Shown here one piece after another: positions 57,423 through 64,000 of a stretch of 64,000 bases of DNA. Within the stretch, counting starts at the first letter, position 1. Each line of letters begins with the position of its first letter. The stretch is taken from NCBI GenBank assembly GCA_966096115.1, contig CBHTUE010000002.1, positions 9,162-73,161 of the forward strand, in the 5' to 3' direction. The notes below the pieces were generated by a model. It did not search any database, was not told the DNA's origin, and saw only the letters and a list, made by a program, of their open reading frames with translations. The translations under genes and the position numbers were made by a program. The stretch comes from an uncultured Phenylobacterium sp. GTDB taxonomy: Bacteria; Pseudomonadota; Alphaproteobacteria; Caulobacterales; Caulobacteraceae.

Positions 57423-58004
57423 TCAGTCGGACGCCAGCGCCCGCAGGTGCGCCCGCTCGTTCAGGCTGAGCACATTCCGCTGGCCGGACCGCGCGCACAT
57501 GTAGCGGTGGACGCTGGTGTAGTCCGGCTCGAAGAACAGACGCGGCGCCATGCCCAGCACGTGTGCGGTCCAGACGTTGATCACCCCACCGTGGCAGAAG
57601 ACGGCGATGCGCTGGCCGGGATGCGCCTCGATCAGGCTCTCCAGCGCCGCCACCACGGTGGCCTGGAACGGCTCGATCTCGACGTTGTGCTCGCCGGTCG
57701 CCATACGCAGCCAGGCGGCGTAGTCCTCGCGCTTCAGCACCTCCATGGGCACGTAGGTCCCGGAGTCGCGGTCGAACTCGCAGATGCCGTCATGGCAGGT
57801 GACGGTATGGGCAGCCTGGGCGGCGAACGGCTCGGCAGTCTGCTTCGCACGCAGCATCGTCGAGGCGTAGACCGCGTCGATGCGCTCCTCGGCCAGCCAG
57901 GCGGCCACGCGCCGCGCCTGTTCGTGGCCCTGCGCCGACAGCGGCGGGTCGGAGGTATCGTCGCGGCGCTCGGGAAGCCCGTGGCGCACCAGTATGAGTT
58001 CCAT
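57423..58004 (-). CDS. Histidine phosphatase (phosphoglycerate mutase-like) family protein
   Basis: LVRHG, STMLRAKQTA, FCHGGVI. Confidence 0.92.
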   Translation of the reverse strand: MELILVRHGLPERRDDTSDPPLSAQGHEQARRVAAWLAEERIDAVYASTMLRAKQTAEPFAAQAAHTVTCHDGICEFDRDSGTYVPMEVLKREDYAAWLRMATGEHNVEIEPFQATVVAALESLIEAHPGQRIAVFCHGGVINVWTAHVLGMAPRLFFEPDYTSVHRYMCARSGQRNVLSLNERAHLRALASD

Positions 58005-58439: not shown

Positions 58440-58529
58440 GGTGACGTGGCCGAGTGGCTGAAGGCAACGGTTTGCTAAATCGTCATACGTGAAAGCGTAT
58501 CGAGGGTTCGAATCCCTCCGTCACCGCCA
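58440..58529 (+). tRNA. tRNA-Ser (anticodon GCT)
   Basis: Acceptor stem GGTGACG/CGTCACC plus GCCA end, D-loop GCCGAGTGG, anticodon loop TTGCTAA, long variable arm, T-loop GGTTCGAATCC. Confidence 0.97.
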
Positions 58530-58731: not shown

Positions 58732-60456
58732 CTAGCCCCCGCGGAACAGGCGTCGGCGCGTCGCCTCTTCCGTCCAGTGTTCCTCGTGAACCCGTTCGAG
58801 CCTGATGGCCGCTTTGACGACGTTCTGGAGCGCCTGCAGCGTAGGCTCCGGCCCGATCGTCGCGCGGAGCGCCTGGAGGCTCTCGACGAGCGCCTGACTC
58901 CGCCGCGCCTGGTCGGAAAGCGAGAGCGTCGCCTCCAGCGCCAGGCACGCGGCCCCGATGGCCGGGACGATGGCGCCGGCCATGATCACCACCCCTCCCA
59001 GCCAGTGCGGCGTCTCGAAATCGAGGAATGCGGCCGCCGCTGCGAGCAGCACATAGCTGCTCAGGATCAGCAGCAGCAGGGCGAAGCTGGCGTTTTCCAG
59101 CAGGTGGACCCGATGCGAGATGCGCCCGTTGATGCGCCACTGATCGCGATGGTAGGCGGCTTGCCCCCCGATCAGTTCGTCGATCGCCCAGCCGCCCCAG
59201 GTCCGCACGCGCTCCGCGTCGAACCTGCCGCTCGGCAGGCCGACGTTACGCCGGATGTCGCGCGCGGCGGACGGCCGATGCGCCTGGGCGCCGTGCCCCC
59301 CGGCGCTCACGCCCAGGGTCCAGGCCGCGCGTTCCAGGCGCAGCTGCTCGGCGAGCTGGCGCGCGTCGCCCCATCGGTGATGGCGTGCGCCACGCTCTGA
59401 ATCCAGCCAGACCAGCAGCGCGCCGATGGCGAGCGCCAGCTCGATCGTCACCATGGCAAGCTTCAGTTGCGGCCAGACCGCCGACGCCGATCCGGCGATC
59501 GCCGCGAGGATGGCGACGCCGAGGAGAATGACCTGATGCGACCTGTGGATGCCGCCCAGCACCTGGGCCTGACGGCCGGCGCGGTCCCGGGCGCGGGTCA
59601 GCGCGATGAAGCCCGGCTGCGCCGACAGATCCGCCGGCGGCGCACGACGCTCGAAGGGTGACGCCTGGCCCCCAAGCACACGACGAAACAGGGCGTAGGT
59701 GCGCCACGGCCACCTCAGGCGCGGCGCGGGCCCGTCGTCCTCCCCCTCTCCCGTCTCCGCATCGTGCTTCGGGCGAGTTCCGCCCAGGCCGAGGTCGAAG
59801 AGGGCGGCGCGCAGCGCCTCGGAGCTCGCCGGCTGGACCAGAGGCGCCCGATCCAGTCGCAGTTCGTCGAGGAACTCCAGGAAACCGAAGTCTTCGTCGA
59901 GGTGCTCGGGCCGGATGATCCGGATCGACGCTGGCGCGCCGGGGCGCACCCAGAGGACGGGGATGCCGTGCTCGAGCGCCAACCGCACGGCGTCGGCTGT
60001 GCCGCCGGCGCCCCGCGCATGCTGGCCGGTCCAGACGACCACCAGCATGTCGGCGGCGCCGATCATCCACAGCGCCTGGGTGAGGTGCGGATTGCGCCCG
60101 ATGGCGCGGGTCGCCGCGCCATCCAGCCACGTCGACGATTCCACCAGGTCCGCCGCTTCGCGCGGGGCCACATCGTCGAGAAGCGGCAATACCGCATGAA
60201 CCGGACCGAGGCCCGCCGCGCGCCAAGCGCGGATCGCCAGGACGTCCGACCCCGGGGCCGCGCCCGTCAACAGGCGCGCCGCACCGACGCCGGCGTCGCG
60301 CAGCATCGCGAACGCTGTCTCCAGAGCCGCGCCGGCCGCCTCGGGATCGCCGAGATCGCCGGACCGGTTGTGTCCGGCAAAGGCGACCTGAAGGAAGCCG
60401 ATATGATCGGGCGAAGTCTCCGGCGCATCACTCCGTGCCGAACCACGCCCGCTCAT
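58732..60456 (-). CDS. SLOG (YspA/LOG/DprA-fold)-like domain fused to two 2-TM SLATT-like modules
   Basis: FAGHNR, LLTGAAPGSD, DMLVVVWTG..ARGAGGTADAV..A...GIPVLWV; then HRSHQVILLGVAILAA...RWGDARQLAEQLR and GQAAYH...VPAIGAA...ARRS segments with 4 TM helices. Confidence 0.7.
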   Translation of the reverse strand: MSGRGSARSDAPETSPDHIGFLQVAFAGHNRSGDLGDPEAAGAALETAFAMLRDAGVGAARLLTGAAPGSDVLAIRAWRAAGLGPVHAVLPLLDDVAPREAADLVESSTWLDGAATRAIGRNPHLTQALWMIGAADMLVVVWTGQHARGAGGTADAVRLALEHGIPVLWVRPGAPASIRIIRPEHLDEDFGFLEFLDELRLDRAPLVQPASSEALRAALFDLGLGGTRPKHDAETGEGEDDGPAPRLRWPWRTYALFRRVLGGQASPFERRAPPADLSAQPGFIALTRARDRAGRQAQVLGGIHRSHQVILLGVAILAAIAGSASAVWPQLKLAMVTIELALAIGALLVWLDSERGARHHRWGDARQLAEQLRLERAAWTLGVSAGGHGAQAHRPSAARDIRRNVGLPSGRFDAERVRTWGGWAIDELIGGQAAYHRDQWRINGRISHRVHLLENASFALLLLILSSYVLLAAAAAFLDFETPHWLGGVVIMAGAIVPAIGAACLALEATLSLSDQARRSQALVESLQALRATIGPEPTLQALQNVVKAAIRLERVHEEHWTEEATRRRLFRGG

Positions 60457-60637: not shown

Positions 60638-62851
60638 ATGAGGGATCGCGGTAAGCGGCAAGCCGTTCCGGATCCAGCTGGGATCCCACCGCTCCGTGTC
60701 GCGATCGTAGGTGGCGGCTGCGCCGCCATGACCGCCGCGTTCGAGCTCTCGCGCCCGGAGCACAACGGCCGCTACGCCGTCACGGTCTACCAGGAAGGAT
60801 GGCGCCTCGGAGGCAAAGGGGCGTCGGGCCGGGGCCCTTCCGGCCGGATCGAGGAACACGGCCTGCACGTCTGGCTGGGCTACTACGACAATGCCTTCCG
60901 GCTGATGCGCGAGTGCTACGCCGAGCTGGCGGCGGCGGAGCCGCCCTCGCCGTTCGGCGATTGGCGCGAGGCGTTCACGCCGGAATCCGACGTCGGCCTG
61001 TTCTCGCCCTCAGAGCAGCAGGGCTGGCAGGTCTGGCGGGGTCGCTTCCCGGAACAGCCGGGCCTCCCGGGAGACCCGCTGGCGCCGGGCGAGCTGTTGT
61101 CCCTGTCCCGCTACGTCGCGCGCACCCTGTCCCTGCTGCGAGCCCTGGTCCTGGACTGCCGGGTCGAAACCGGCAGCACGGAAGCCTTCACGGCCCAGGG
61201 CTCCGAACCGCCACCCGACCCACGGCCGGACCCCCGCAGGCTCACGGAGAGGCTCAACGACCTGGCCGGACTGGGATCGTTCGTCGCCGCCGCCACGCTG
61301 GCGGAGGCGCTGGGGGCGCTGGCCGCCGTGCTGAACAGCCCGACGGCCAGGCCAGGACGCGCCTGGCTGACCCTCGCCGACGACCTCTGCCGCAGGCTGC
61401 GGGGCTGGCTCGAGGACACCCTGATCGCCAGCGGCCGGCATCGGCACCTTTGGGAGATCATCGACCTCGCCCTGGCCTATGTCGTCGGCGTGTTCCGCTT
61501 CGGGTTGCTCACGGACCCGAGGGGCCTGGACGCCATCGACGACTACGAGTGCCGCGAATGGCTCGCGCTCAACGGGGCGTCCGAGCGGGCTCTGCAGTCG
61601 CCGTTCGTGCGCGGCATGTACGATCTGGCGCTCGCCTACGAGGACGGCAAAGCGGAGCGGCCGAGGCTGTCCGCCGGCCAGGGCCTGCGGTCGACCATGC
61701 GCATGTTCTTCGGCTATCGGGGATCGATCTTCTGGCGGATGCGCGCCGGCATGGGCGACGTCGTCTTCGCGCCCCTCTACGAGGCGCTGCGCCGCCGCGG
61801 CGTCCAGTTCGAATTCTTCCACCGCCTGACGAACGTCGGCCTGGCCCCGGGCGGCGAGCTGGCGCCGGGCGACCAGACCCATGTGCAGGAGCTCGTCTTC
61901 GACGTTCAGGCCGACGTGACGGGCGCTCAGCCCTATGCGCCCCTGGTGTCGGTCGCGGGCCGACCCTGCTGGCCCAGCCAGCCGGATTTCGGCCAGCTCG
62001 TCGATGGCGACCGCCTGGCCGAGGCCGGGGGGGATTTCGAGTGCCACTGGCAACGCCACCGCGTCCGCACCCGATCGCTGAGCGTCGGCCACGACTTCGA
62101 CTTCGTCGTCCTGGGCGTCGGCCTGGGCGCGATACCGCATGTCTGCGGAGAGCTGCTGCAGCGCGACGCACGGTGGCGGCGGATGACCACCGAGGTGAAG
62201 ACCGTGGCGACCCAGGCGTTCCAGATCTGGCTGCGAGAGGACCTGGATCAGCTCGGCTGGCCGGGGTCGCACCGCCTCGTCGCCGGGTTCGTGAAGCCCT
62301 ACGACACCTGGTGCGACATGGGCCACGTCGTGTCCCAGGAGGCTTGGCGGTCGCCGCCGCGCACCGCCGTCTACTTCTGCTCGGTGCTCGAGGACCCGCC
62401 TGAGCCGCCGTCGGACGACGATGTCGCCTACCCCGAGCGCCGCGCCGCGGAGGCCAGGGCCAACGCCGAGGCGTTCCTGGACGGACCCGCCCGGCTCCTG
62501 TGGCCCAGGGCCTACGACGCGGGCGGGAGGTTTCGGTGGGAGCTCCTGGCCGATGCGCGCGACTGCCCGAAGCACGTCCCCCCTACCGGGACGGGCCGGT
62601 TTGCCAGTCAGTACTGGCGCGCCAACGTCAATCCGTCCGACCGTTACGTGCAGAGCCTGCCCGGCACGGCGCGGCGCCGCATCTCTCCCCTGGACATGAC
62701 CTACGACAACCTGACCATCGCCGGCGACTGGACGGATTGCGGCTTCAACGTGGGCTGCGTCGAGGCTGCGGTCATGTCGGGGCGTCTCGCCGCCCACGCG
62801 CTGTCGGGGTCACCCGCACTTGAGGACATCGTCGCCTATGACCACCCCTGA
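60638..62851 (+). CDS. FAD/NAD(P)-binding oxidoreductase of the phytoene desaturase/ZDS/HpnE clan
   Basis: VAIVGGGCAAMTAAFEL, WRLGGKGASGR, EEHGLHVWLGYYDNAF, LTIAGDWT...GCVEAAVMSG. Confidence 0.8.
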   Translation: MRDRGKRQAVPDPAGIPPLRVAIVGGGCAAMTAAFELSRPEHNGRYAVTVYQEGWRLGGKGASGRGPSGRIEEHGLHVWLGYYDNAFRLMRECYAELAAAEPPSPFGDWREAFTPESDVGLFSPSEQQGWQVWRGRFPEQPGLPGDPLAPGELLSLSRYVARTLSLLRALVLDCRVETGSTEAFTAQGSEPPPDPRPDPRRLTERLNDLAGLGSFVAAATLAEALGALAAVLNSPTARPGRAWLTLADDLCRRLRGWLEDTLIASGRHRHLWEIIDLALAYVVGVFRFGLLTDPRGLDAIDDYECREWLALNGASERALQSPFVRGMYDLALAYEDGKAERPRLSAGQGLRSTMRMFFGYRGSIFWRMRAGMGDVVFAPLYEALRRRGVQFEFFHRLTNVGLAPGGELAPGDQTHVQELVFDVQADVTGAQPYAPLVSVAGRPCWPSQPDFGQLVDGDRLAEAGGDFECHWQRHRVRTRSLSVGHDFDFVVLGVGLGAIPHVCGELLQRDARWRRMTTEVKTVATQAFQIWLREDLDQLGWPGSHRLVAGFVKPYDTWCDMGHVVSQEAWRSPPRTAVYFCSVLEDPPEPPSDDDVAYPERRAAEARANAEAFLDGPARLLWPRAYDAGGRFRWELLADARDCPKHVPPTGTGRFASQYWRANVNPSDRYVQSLPGTARRRISPLDMTYDNLTIAGDWTDCGFNVGCVEAAVMSGRLAAHALSGSPALEDIVAYDHP

Positions 62852-63659
62852 CGCCCCAAGCGGCGCGGCCGCGCAACCCGAGCCCGGCCGGCCTCGCGCC
62901 AAGCGGCCGACGCCGGCCCGCGATGCGCCCCGCCGCGGCTATGGTCCCGAGCCTGCGGCGCCGGCCTCGCCCGATGCGGCGGCCAGCGCGGCCTCGGCGT
63001 CCGAGGCGATCGCCCACGCCGTTCGGCTGGGCTACTCGGTGATCGGCGAGAACATCGCCCAGGGTCGCGAGGCGGCGAGCGCGTTCCGGGCCGGCGACTA
63101 CCGGCCCGACAAAGCCACCGAAGACCTCAAGGCCGTGGCCTCGCGCATGCTGCAACTCACCCGGGAGCTCAGCACCCTGTCCTTCGACGTGCTGGAGCGC
63201 CTCGTGCAGGACCCGGCGGCCCGGGGGGGCGGCGCGCCGGCGAGCCCCCCGCCCGCCCCCACCGGCGGCGACCCCGCGACGCGGCCGGCCCCGGGTCCCT
63301 TCCAGGCCGGCGATCCCCCCGCCGGACCCGTCGAGGCCGCGAAGGCCCCGGCGCCGCAGGCCACGCCGCACGTGGAGCTGACCTGCAGCTTCAGTGGCGG
63401 CCGGGCCGTCCTGAAGGCCGGCGCCCTGTCTCGCCCCGACACGCCGGTGTTTCTCGTAGTGCCGGCGCTCACCGCCATCGAGCCTGGCCCGCCGACCATC
63501 ACCGGTGAAGTGACCTTCACCCCGGCCGCCAGCGGCGACGGCCTCGTGGCCAACATCAAGATCCCGGAGGGCCAGCCCCCGGGTCTCTACAGCGGAGTCA
63601 TCTGCGTCTGGGACACGGGCATCCCGATGGGCATGCTGACGATCGAAGTGCTCGCATGA
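62838..63659 (+). CDS. Hypothetical protein (Pro/Ala-rich linkers, helical segment, beta-rich C-terminal domain)
   Basis: Start overlaps the oxidoreductase end by 14 nt; stop overlaps the next ATG (ATGA); IKIPEGQPPGLYSGVI beta-strand pattern. Confidence 0.7.
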   Translation: MTTPDAPSGAAAQPEPGRPRAKRPTPARDAPRRGYGPEPAAPASPDAAASAASASEAIAHAVRLGYSVIGENIAQGREAASAFRAGDYRPDKATEDLKAVASRMLQLTRELSTLSFDVLERLVQDPAARGGGAPASPPPAPTGGDPATRPAPGPFQAGDPPAGPVEAAKAPAPQATPHVELTCSFSGGRAVLKAGALSRPDTPVFLVVPALTAIEPGPPTITGEVTFTPAASGDGLVANIKIPEGQPPGLYSGVICVWDTGIPMGMLTIEVLA

Positions 63660-64000
63660 TCCGCGAGCCTCCCGACGCCTTCGACGCGCCCCGGGCGGAC
63701 GGCGAGCTCATGTCGTCGCTGCTGGCCGAATACGGCGCGGCCACCCGGGAGACCCTTCAGCGCTACCTCCGCCGCGAGCGCCCAGCGCCCTATCTCGACG
63801 ACCTCATGGCGGACTATCCCGCGCGGGGCGGCAAGATGATGCGCCCCAGCCTGTGCATCGCCAATGCGCGGGCCTTCGGCGGACGGCTCGACGACGCGGT
63901 GAGGAGCGCCGCGGCCATCGAGCTCCTCCACAACGCGCTCCTGGTGCATGACGACATCCAGGACGGCAGCGAGACCCGACGCGGACGCCCGACCTTGCAC
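63656..64000 (+). CDS. Polyprenyl diphosphate synthase (trans-IPPS), N-terminal part; truncated by window end (not in ORF track)
   Basis: Manual translation from ATG 63656: ...YPARGGKMMRPSLC...AIELLHNALLVHDDIQDGSETRRGRPTLH (GGKxxRP, first DDxxD motif, RRG). Confidence 0.92.
   Translation, partial: MIREPPDAFDAPRADGELMSSLLAEYGAATRETLQRYLRRERPAPYLDDLMADYPARGGKMMRPSLCIANARAFGGRLDDAVRSAAAIELLHNALLVHDDIQDGSETRRGRPTLH

Follow-up and report, generated by a model that had tools for sequence, protein, structure and literature searches.

A five-gene operon with a desaturase-branch flavoprotein, a prenyl diphosphate synthase and a pair of ADC-fold proteins is co-inherited with a TPR sensor

In the 5.2-Mb metagenome-assembled genome of an uncultured Phenylobacterium sp. 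(Caulobacteraceae), a placement with which its GroEL cluster names agree, we analysed a window of 64,000 nucleotides (C2:9162-73161), and the following 20 kb of the contig were taken in as locus L003. Towards its end the window enters an operon of five genes, which encode a flavoprotein (FLAV), a protein of an unnamed family (MID), a trans-prenyl diphosphate synthase (PPS) and two proteins predicted to have the acetoacetate decarboxylase (ADC) fold (ADC1 and ADC2). The module is co-inherited with a large TPR sensor encoded beside it. According to the explanation that we favour, and to which we assign a probability of about 60%, it is a horizontally mobile module in which a prenyl diphosphate is made, converted by flavin redox and lysine Schiff-base chemistry, and tied to the sensor. 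Its product is probably a small hydrophobic molecule derived from an isoprenoid, either a lipid or a signal.

The FLAV open reading frame covers positions 60638-62851 of the forward strand (737 aa). MID (62838-63659, forward strand) starts with an ATG at 62838 within the last FLAV codons (GCC TAT GAC CAC CCC TGA), resulting in an overlap of 14 nt, and its stop codon is joined to the PPS start codon in the ATGA at 63656-63659. PPS, on the same strand, occupies 63656-64000 of the window, which holds its first 115 aa, and extends beyond the edge to a total of 353 aa, ending at C2:73878 (L003 4879). ADC1 (390 aa) follows 53 nt after PPS and ADC2 (374 aa) 4 nt after ADC1, both co-directional with the first three genes. 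An earlier reading of the window from its letters alone, hereafter the original prediction, had proposed a coupled operon of three genes joined by 14-nt and ATGA overlaps; the gene positions and both overlaps agreed with our data and the coupling is real, while the operon itself continues past the synthase into ADC1 and ADC2.

In two ENA contigs with an identical locus, the genes called by outside software include a MID of 273 aa and a PPS of 353 aa, with identical overlaps. The public FLAV gene call is 707 aa long and starts from M31 (window 60728), so that the GGGCAA dinucleotide-binding loop is lost. M1 was considered the better start because the homologues all align from about residue 18 and M31 drops this loop; the ATG at 60638 is preceded by a Shine-Dalgarno-like GGGGGAG. 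No riboswitch or other RNA family was detected by Rfam in the 11 kb around the operon, and a promoter and terminator scan of the locus returned nothing beyond chance level.

The distribution of the module was evaluated among at least 581 FLAV relatives present in species-representative genomes, out of which 80 loci were fetched (81 with our own); a separate protein search with FLAV returned 5509 matches. The order FLAV-MID-PPS was kept in about 60-70 of the 80 fetched loci, almost wherever the contig was long enough, and the trio of the original prediction was thus found together, in the same order, across many phyla. Among the 81 loci FLAV occurred in 81, PPS in 72, MID in 63 and an ADC-fold gene in 52-72, while a saccharopine-dehydrogenase-like reductase was present in 48 loci and an Epimerase-type SDR in 9 others. 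Proteobacterial carriers belong to the Caulobacteraceae, Sphingomonadales, Acetobacteraceae, Bradyrhizobium, Methylococcaceae (Methylococcales) and Rubrivivax (Burkholderiales), and the others to the picocyanobacteria (Cyanobium/Synechococcus), Nitrospirota, Myxococcota, Binatia, Acidobacteriota, Margulisiibacteriota and Limnocylindria. Cultured carriers are Archangium violaceum Cb vi76, Qipengyuania xiapuensis 1NDW9, Methylotetracoccus oryzae C50C1 and Aphanothece cf. minutissima CCALA 015. A literature search by component names and by COG3349 retrieved no published description of the module.

The sensor gene was found by all-against-all clustering of the open reading frames across the loci. 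For 28 loci the sequence available reached 3.5 kb or more on either side; in 27 of them the sensor gene lies no more than 2.5 kb from the module, mostly at 0-90 bp. Sensor orthology extends over about 1000 aa, with 26-48% identity (30% or more in most cases), and the ranking of the sensors roughly tracks FLAV similarity, showing that the module is inherited together with its sensor. In our Phenylobacterium genome the sensor gene (1124 aa; C2:76262-79636, reverse strand; L003 7263-10637) is convergent with the operon at a distance of 29 bp.

The FLAV sequence was analysed against Pfam and NCBIfam profiles. The protein scored above the Pfam cut-offs for Amino_oxidase (PF01593, 41.9 vs 19.8 bits) and NAD_binding_8 (PF13450, 38.6 vs 21.9 bits), and below the cut-offs of all three NCBIfam equivalogs used, i.e. 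those for phytoene desaturase (PDS), zeta-carotene desaturase (ZDS) and hydroxysqualene dehydroxylase (HpnE) (TIGR02731, TIGR02732, TIGR03467). HpnE (TIGR03467) was the top NCBIfam match with 60.7 vs 283 bits, followed by ZDS (34.1 vs 622) and PDS (26.3 vs 569); the three profiles aligned to FLAV residues 20-97 only, approximately, and the scores were 5-20 times under the cut-offs. A single-sequence search of the PDB with FLAV gave no match, and a profile built on 27 orthologues returned plant PDS (5mog) as its sole match, with an E value of 0.01 and at the ends only (72 N-terminal and 34 C-terminal profile positions). The N-terminal GGK...E.GLH..G.Y.N and the C-terminal AGDWT motifs occur as in PDS and are invariant in the 27 orthologues, and the GGGCAA dinucleotide-binding motif corresponds to G25-A30. 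Compared with the PDS, ZDS and HpnE profiles of 430-474 residues, FLAV contains about 250-300 additional residues, located in the middle of the protein. As only the end motifs match, we placed this FAD oxidoreductase within the flavin amine-oxidase superfamily, where it forms a separate, longer family of the PDS/ZDS/HpnE branch. The original prediction of an atypically long, 737-aa flavoprotein with PDS/ZDS/HpnE-like terminal motifs and a GGGCAA dinucleotide motif was therefore correct. From cyanobacteria to myxobacteria the 27 orthologues share 50-66% identity (mean column identity 60%), with invariant C28, C93, C581, C707 and C-terminal DHP. The family carries the JGI label 'uncharacterized protein with NAD-binding domain and iron-sulfur cluster'.

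These data bear on the possibility that the locus is a divergent one for carotenoids, squalene or hopanoids, in which FLAV would be a phytoene or zeta-carotene desaturase or a hydroxysqualene dehydroxylase. The PDS-like end motifs, the first rank of HpnE among the NCBIfam matches and a PPS resembling a geranylgeranyl diphosphate (GGPP) synthase would agree with it, and in the module, as in the HpnCDE and CrtE-CrtB-PDS/ZDS sets, a flavoprotein of this branch accompanies a trans-prenyl diphosphate synthase, with shared features including the N-terminal dinucleotide fold, the GLH motif and the C-terminal AGD(W/Y)T. However, the equivalog scores of FLAV are far too low and confined to its ends, squalene and phytoene synthases (SQS/PSY) are absent from the contig, the only SQS_PSY match in the whole genome being a partial one on contig C8, and crt or hpn genes were conserved neighbours in 0 of the 80 loci, as were SQS/PSY genes. 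In contrast to the known sets, the module lacks an enzyme for head-to-head condensation (SQS/PSY or HpnC/D) and no cyclase was seen, with no search aimed at cyclase families; its FLAV is about 280 residues longer, and nothing in those sets corresponds to MID, the ADC pair or the TPR sensor. We thus regard a carotenoid, squalene or hopanoid locus as extremely improbable.

The full-length PPS was recognised by the Pfam polyprenyl_synt profile (PF00348) with 177.2 vs 27 bits, and its closest solved relative was the GGPP synthase of Thermus thermophilus (1wmw, E 4.6e-56). The GGKxxRP and first DDIQD motifs noted in the original prediction were both confirmed, the former as GGKMMRP, and a second Asp-rich motif was identified as DDVRN. 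The first motif (DDxxD) and the unusual second one (DDxxN, in 69 of 69 PPS orthologues) are shared with 1wmw, which differs from the PPS family in having a Trp at position -5 before the first Asp-rich motif, where our PPS has Ala and the family Ala or Gly. In prenyl synthases a bulky residue at -4 or -5 before the first motif limits the product to C20; by this chain-length rule, the small residue at -5 means that the PPS product may be longer than C20. PPS scored below the GGPP synthase equivalogs (NF041003, 158.7 vs 500; NF040698, 164.2 vs 468; NF045549, 108.5 vs 475). An assignment as the polyprenyl transferase cargo of a Family 2 encapsulin (NF041169) was also considered and rejected, with 157.9 vs 450 bits and no encapsulin shell gene seen in the locus.

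Two further prenyl synthases, on contigs C273 and C16, were taken as housekeeping enzymes, and because they are located elsewhere we regard PPS as an extra, dedicated synthase. In the 20 kb fetched beyond the window, no crt, hpn or SQS/PSY gene followed the operon; the continuation that the original prediction had proposed to retrieve turned out to consist of the two ADC-fold genes and the convergent sensor gene. The earlier statement that the window lacks a phytoene or squalene synthase or a cyclase holds for SQS/PSY, while cyclase families were not searched. The non-carotenoid, non-hopanoid isoprenoid pathway suggested at that stage fits the FLAV scores far under the HpnE, ZDS and PDS cut-offs, the lack of SQS/PSY nearby and the housekeeping synthases elsewhere. 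Beside some copies of the module, a FadL-type outer-membrane transporter was observed in the Nitrospirales and Methylococcaceae versions (L034 3961-7835; upstream in L026 and L027), and a geranylgeranyl-reductase-like flavoprotein in both Nitrospirota loci (L034, L078). Taken together, these two neighbours fit a hydrophobic isoprenoid product.

ADC1 and ADC2 are paralogues with 25% identity. A single-sequence PDB search with ADC1 gave no match, and its fold was assigned from a predicted structure (predicted local distance difference test score, pLDDT, of 77): the top 24 Foldseek hits all belonged to the ADC superfamily (among them 3bgt, 3c8w, 3cmb, 6eej, 4jm3 and 5upb), with E values from 1.7e-13 to 1.9e-8. 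The model shows the beta-cone found in 3bgt, MppR (4jm3), Sbi00515 (6eej) and Swit_4259 (5upb), with target TM-scores of 0.6-0.73, and a fused homologue in L034 reaches the Pfam ADC cut-off (32.0 vs 29.8 bits). Across 93 ADC domain hits, the first unit of every locus has a lysine at the Schiff-base position, as placed by a weak alignment (E about 1), whereas this position is A, T, M, S or V in most second units; accordingly, in our pair ADC1 has the lysine and ADC2 does not. R142, K250 and Q251, within an LKQxRD motif, are near-invariant in both units, and many lineages have a single protein of 800-900 aa in which both units are joined. The pattern of kept and lost lysines and the fusions support an active unit and a degenerate one that may act together. 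The module units differ from the known superfamily members in their size (370-390 vs about 250 aa) with a helical insert of about 50 residues, in the lack of the second lysine of the 'KK' pair, in their own invariant LKQxRD, in the tandem or fused arrangement of an active and a degenerate unit, and in their isoprenoid context. We know of no characterised ADC-superfamily member in such a context, nor was one found in the literature.

The ADC pair also raises the possibility of a core that is not isoprenoid at all, in which FLAV would be an amine or amino-acid oxidase, the ADC pair would process a keto acid as MppR does, and PPS would serve a late prenyl decoration. FLAV does exceed the Pfam Amino_oxidase cut-off, and the characterised enzymes of the ADC superfamily (true ADC, MppR, Sbi00515) all use small keto acids, to the best of our knowledge. 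On the other hand, the diagnostic motifs of FLAV place it with the PDS/ZDS/HpnE branch rather than with MAO or LAAO, an aromatic or ABBA prenyltransferase that could attach the chain is missing, and PPS is conserved in the module as strictly as FLAV, which makes this proposal improbable.

MID had no match in Pfam, NCBIfam or PADLOC, and was characterised by an AF2 model and by synteny. The model consists of a disordered N-terminus rich in Arg and Pro, in which an RxxRPxPxRxxPxR motif is conserved, followed by a helical hairpin (residues 45-124), a Pro-rich linker and an Ig-like beta-sandwich (181-271) with a pLDDT above 95; picocyanobacterial versions lack the sandwich. A Foldseek search of the model against the PDB returned nothing significant (best E 0.5), and a role as a prenyl carrier was left unsupported, as no significant lipid-binding fold of the RhoGDI, PDE-delta or ML-domain type emerged at that value. 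In about 60 loci the MID gene is flanked by FLAV and PPS, and 20 of 77 loci, belonging to several classes, show an identical 14-nt FLAV-MID overlap (L009, L016, L019, L023, L024, L027, L033 and others). The end of FLAV, YDHP-stop (TAT GAC CAC CCC TGA), dual-codes the first MID codons M-T-T-P, and given this conserved overlapping start, part of the invariance of the FLAV C-terminus may stem from the overlap. FLAV and MID are probably co-produced, as suggested by their junction, and MID may be a partner of FLAV. Of the scaffold or carrier role put forward for MID in the original prediction, our data bear out its tight coupling to FLAV only.

The usual body of the sensor consists of a cyclase-homology domain, an AAA_16 domain and MalT-like TPR of the STAND type, preceded by an N-terminus that varies among none, TIR, SAM and Ser/Thr kinase. 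The Phenylobacterium sensor is of the TIR-cyclase-AAA_16-TPR type, with 68.4 bits for TIR_2 and 86.2 bits for AAA_16; TPR_MalT and TPR_12 fell below their cut-offs and were nevertheless consistent, and an AAA_16 domain followed by TPR was also found in 5 other sensors. Some Sphingomonadales sensors are TIR-TPR proteins without the NTPase, the Novosphingobium type is wHTH-BTAD-TPR, and most sensors have no DNA-binding domain. The sensors resemble STAND and NLR-like proteins (AfsR/SARP and MalT regulators, cyclase-ATPase proteins such as Rv0386 of Mycobacterium, antiviral STAND) in the combination of AAA_16 with MalT-like TPR and in the swappable N-terminal outputs, and differ from them in being co-inherited with a metabolic operon and in mostly lacking a DNA-binding domain.

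Nine TIR domains of module sensors, from Caulobacteraceae and Sphingomonadales loci, share 40-56% identity, and the Glu at the catalytic position (E73 in WVxxE) is invariant. On the other side of the operon, and divergent from it, lies the gene of a SLOG-like/SLATT membrane protein of 574 aa (58732-60456, reverse strand). The SLATT_1 profile of NCBIfam matched 6 of 6 orthologues of this gene (best E 8.5e-14), our own copy reaching 25 bits against a cut-off of 41; the SLOG part was assigned from motifs and weak matches (YAcAr, E 0.0018 in L011; YpsA 2nx2, E 1.9). Full-length SLOG-SLATT orthologues adjoin the module in six further alphaproteobacterial loci (L006, L007, L008, L011, L021, L075), and they occurred only with TIR-bearing sensors, i.e. 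in 7 of 10 TIR loci vs 0 of 71 others. In the Thoeris system the TIR protein ThsB signals to the SLOG protein ThsA. Similarly, a TIR with the catalytic-position Glu is paired here with a SLOG-like receiver, albeit one weakly assigned as SLOG; unlike ThsA, this receiver has a SLATT membrane domain and no SIR2, and no PADLOC match was obtained. The SLOG-SLATT protein is probably the receiver and effector of the sensor TIR, judging from their co-occurrence, and the analogy with Thoeris suggests that the output of our sensor would run through a TIR-made nucleotide to the membrane effector.

Regulators of the Crp/FNR type that bind cyclic nucleotide monophosphates (cNMP) adjoin the module in about 10 loci of five or six lineages (e.g. 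L012 17288-18022, L034 2690-3499, L058 5386-7826, L077 3956-4951), with none at our own locus; in L034 a class-II cAMP-phosphodiesterase-like gene is found as well. Such a neighbourhood hints at a cNMP relay from the sensor cyclase domain to the Crp-type regulators.

A rival explanation takes the whole locus as an anti-phage or conflict system, in which the STAND-TPR protein would sense infection, the TIR would signal to a SLOG-SLATT pore, and the isoprenoid operon would be an effector or immunity arm, through a change of the membrane lipids or an inhibitory compound. The effector-type N-termini, which vary among TIR, SAM and Ser/Thr kinase while the STAND-TPR body is orthologous throughout, the retained Glu of the TIR, the strict co-occurrence of SLOG-SLATT with TIR and the placement of the module in an accessory island past a tRNA, missing from congeners and patchy over the phyla, all point in this direction. 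PADLOC, however, had no model for FLAV, MID, PPS, ADC1, ADC2 or the SLATT protein and gave only weak matches in the TIR region of the sensor, and the 50-66% identity of FLAV across phyla would be unusually high for defence genes. Moreover, most loci are without TIR and SLATT and have a cyclase with Crp-type regulators, or a wHTH-BTAD activator, pointing to regulation. No defence system based on a prenyl synthase was found in the literature and none is known to us; we therefore consider a defence function of the whole locus unlikely.

An ordinary secondary-metabolite or membrane-lipid cluster, for a pigment, an antibiotic or an envelope lipid, was given a similarly low likelihood. Here the TPR protein would be a regulator of the AfsR/SARP/MalT type, and the TIR and SLOG-SLATT would be unrelated neighbours. 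The wHTH-BTAD-TPR architecture of the Novosphingobium type is that of SARP proteins, AAA_16 with MalT-like TPR is usual for large transcriptional regulators, and the FadL-type transporters and the geranylgeranyl-reductase-like flavoprotein of some loci would find a natural place in such a cluster. Nevertheless, a DNA-binding domain is absent from most sensors, and both the TIR conservation (40-56%) and the distribution of SLOG-SLATT (7/10 vs 0/71) are hard to square with chance adjacency.

A further proposal, which we put forward as doubtful, would make the module a self-contained system of metabolite signalling without a described precedent. The sensor would be an NLR-like TPR-STAND receptor that reads either a FLAV-MID complex or an isoprenoid ligand, made by the operon from a prenyl substrate with the help of a lysine enzyme of the ADC fold. 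The receptor would fire outputs depending on the lineage, namely a TIR-made nucleotide signal to the SLOG-SLATT membrane pore in Alphaproteobacteria, a kinase signal in Myxococcota, and a cNMP signal to Crp-type regulators in other lineages, and would thus represent a lipid-gated NLR for cell fate or defence.

Returning to the sensor-linked isoprenoid module that we prefer, its steps were proposed from the family membership of the proteins. PPS would make a dedicated all-trans prenyl diphosphate of C20 or longer, and the ADC pair would act on a carbonyl intermediate via a lysine Schiff base, by decarboxylation or by an aldol-type formation of a C-C bond. FLAV would modify the isoprenoid chain in a flavin-dependent redox step, with MID as a non-enzymatic partner produced in step with it, and most other copies of the module would add an NAD(P)-dependent reductase. 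The adjacent TPR sensor would either control the operon or perceive its product, and in our Phenylobacterium genome, where it bears a TIR, the SLOG-SLATT membrane protein would be its probable downstream effector.

Several points weigh against this proposal. No protein of the module has a known substrate, product or activity, and what happens to the prenyl diphosphate chemically can only be guessed, because no scaffold-forming enzyme (terpene cyclase, SQS/PSY or UbiA-type transferase) was seen, with the limit on cyclases given above. Our ADC1 remains under the cut-off of Pfam ADC (PF06314, 16.3 vs 29.8 bits); its K149 was placed by the weak HMM alignment on the first K of 'FPKK' in Sbi00515, which we take to be the Schiff-base lysine of that enzyme, and K250 of ADC1 is more strictly conserved than K149. 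The reductase that is usual in the other loci is absent from our cluster, so that this copy may be incomplete or may yield a different end product. As for the sensor, the cyclase match of our own protein is partial (profile positions 57-175, E 5e-7), the N-terminal TIR, SAM and kinase domains of the family are more like those of NLRs from conflict systems than those of pathway regulators, and the relationship between operon and sensor could run in either direction.

A classical SDR gene is located about 700 bp past the sensor (C2:80373-81158, reverse strand; L003 11374-12159). It has no close orthologue in the genus, with paralogues of 46-50% identity only, and probably belongs to the same accessory region; its product may replace the reductase missing from the cluster.

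If solved, the pathway would probably provide new isoprenoid chemistry together with a new lipid or signal, and it spans freshwater picocyanobacteria, Nitrospira, methanotrophs, sphingomonads and myxobacteria. It also offers a concrete example, open to experiment, of an NLR-like bacterial protein that is coupled to the making of a small molecule, which bears on how such sensors are activated.

Finally, we investigated the position of the module within the genus Phenylobacterium. Nucleotide synteny with the nearest congeneric genome ends at about window position 58004, at a phosphatase gene that lies just upstream of a tRNA-Ser (GCT) gene (58440-58529, forward strand, by ARAGORN) and that 30 of 41 genomes of the genus contain. 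Right after this tRNA begins the variable region with the module. Neither a direct repeat of the tRNA-Ser 3' end nor an integrase was found on the contig, and synteny with complete congeneric genomes was too scrambled for placing the far boundary of the island. A FLAV orthologue was present in 0 of 36 same-genus genomes, seven of which have only a stand-alone paralogue of 33-40% identity. The module is thus accessory and island-like in the genus, and we read it as horizontally mobile. The Phenylobacterium genome itself also holds a second FLAV-like gene with 33-44% identity to FLAV, split across two contig ends (C97:1-1542 and C319:2-682); it has no PPS, MID or ADC neighbours, adjoins a wHTH-TPR protein and an ECF sigma factor, and provided no hint of a function.

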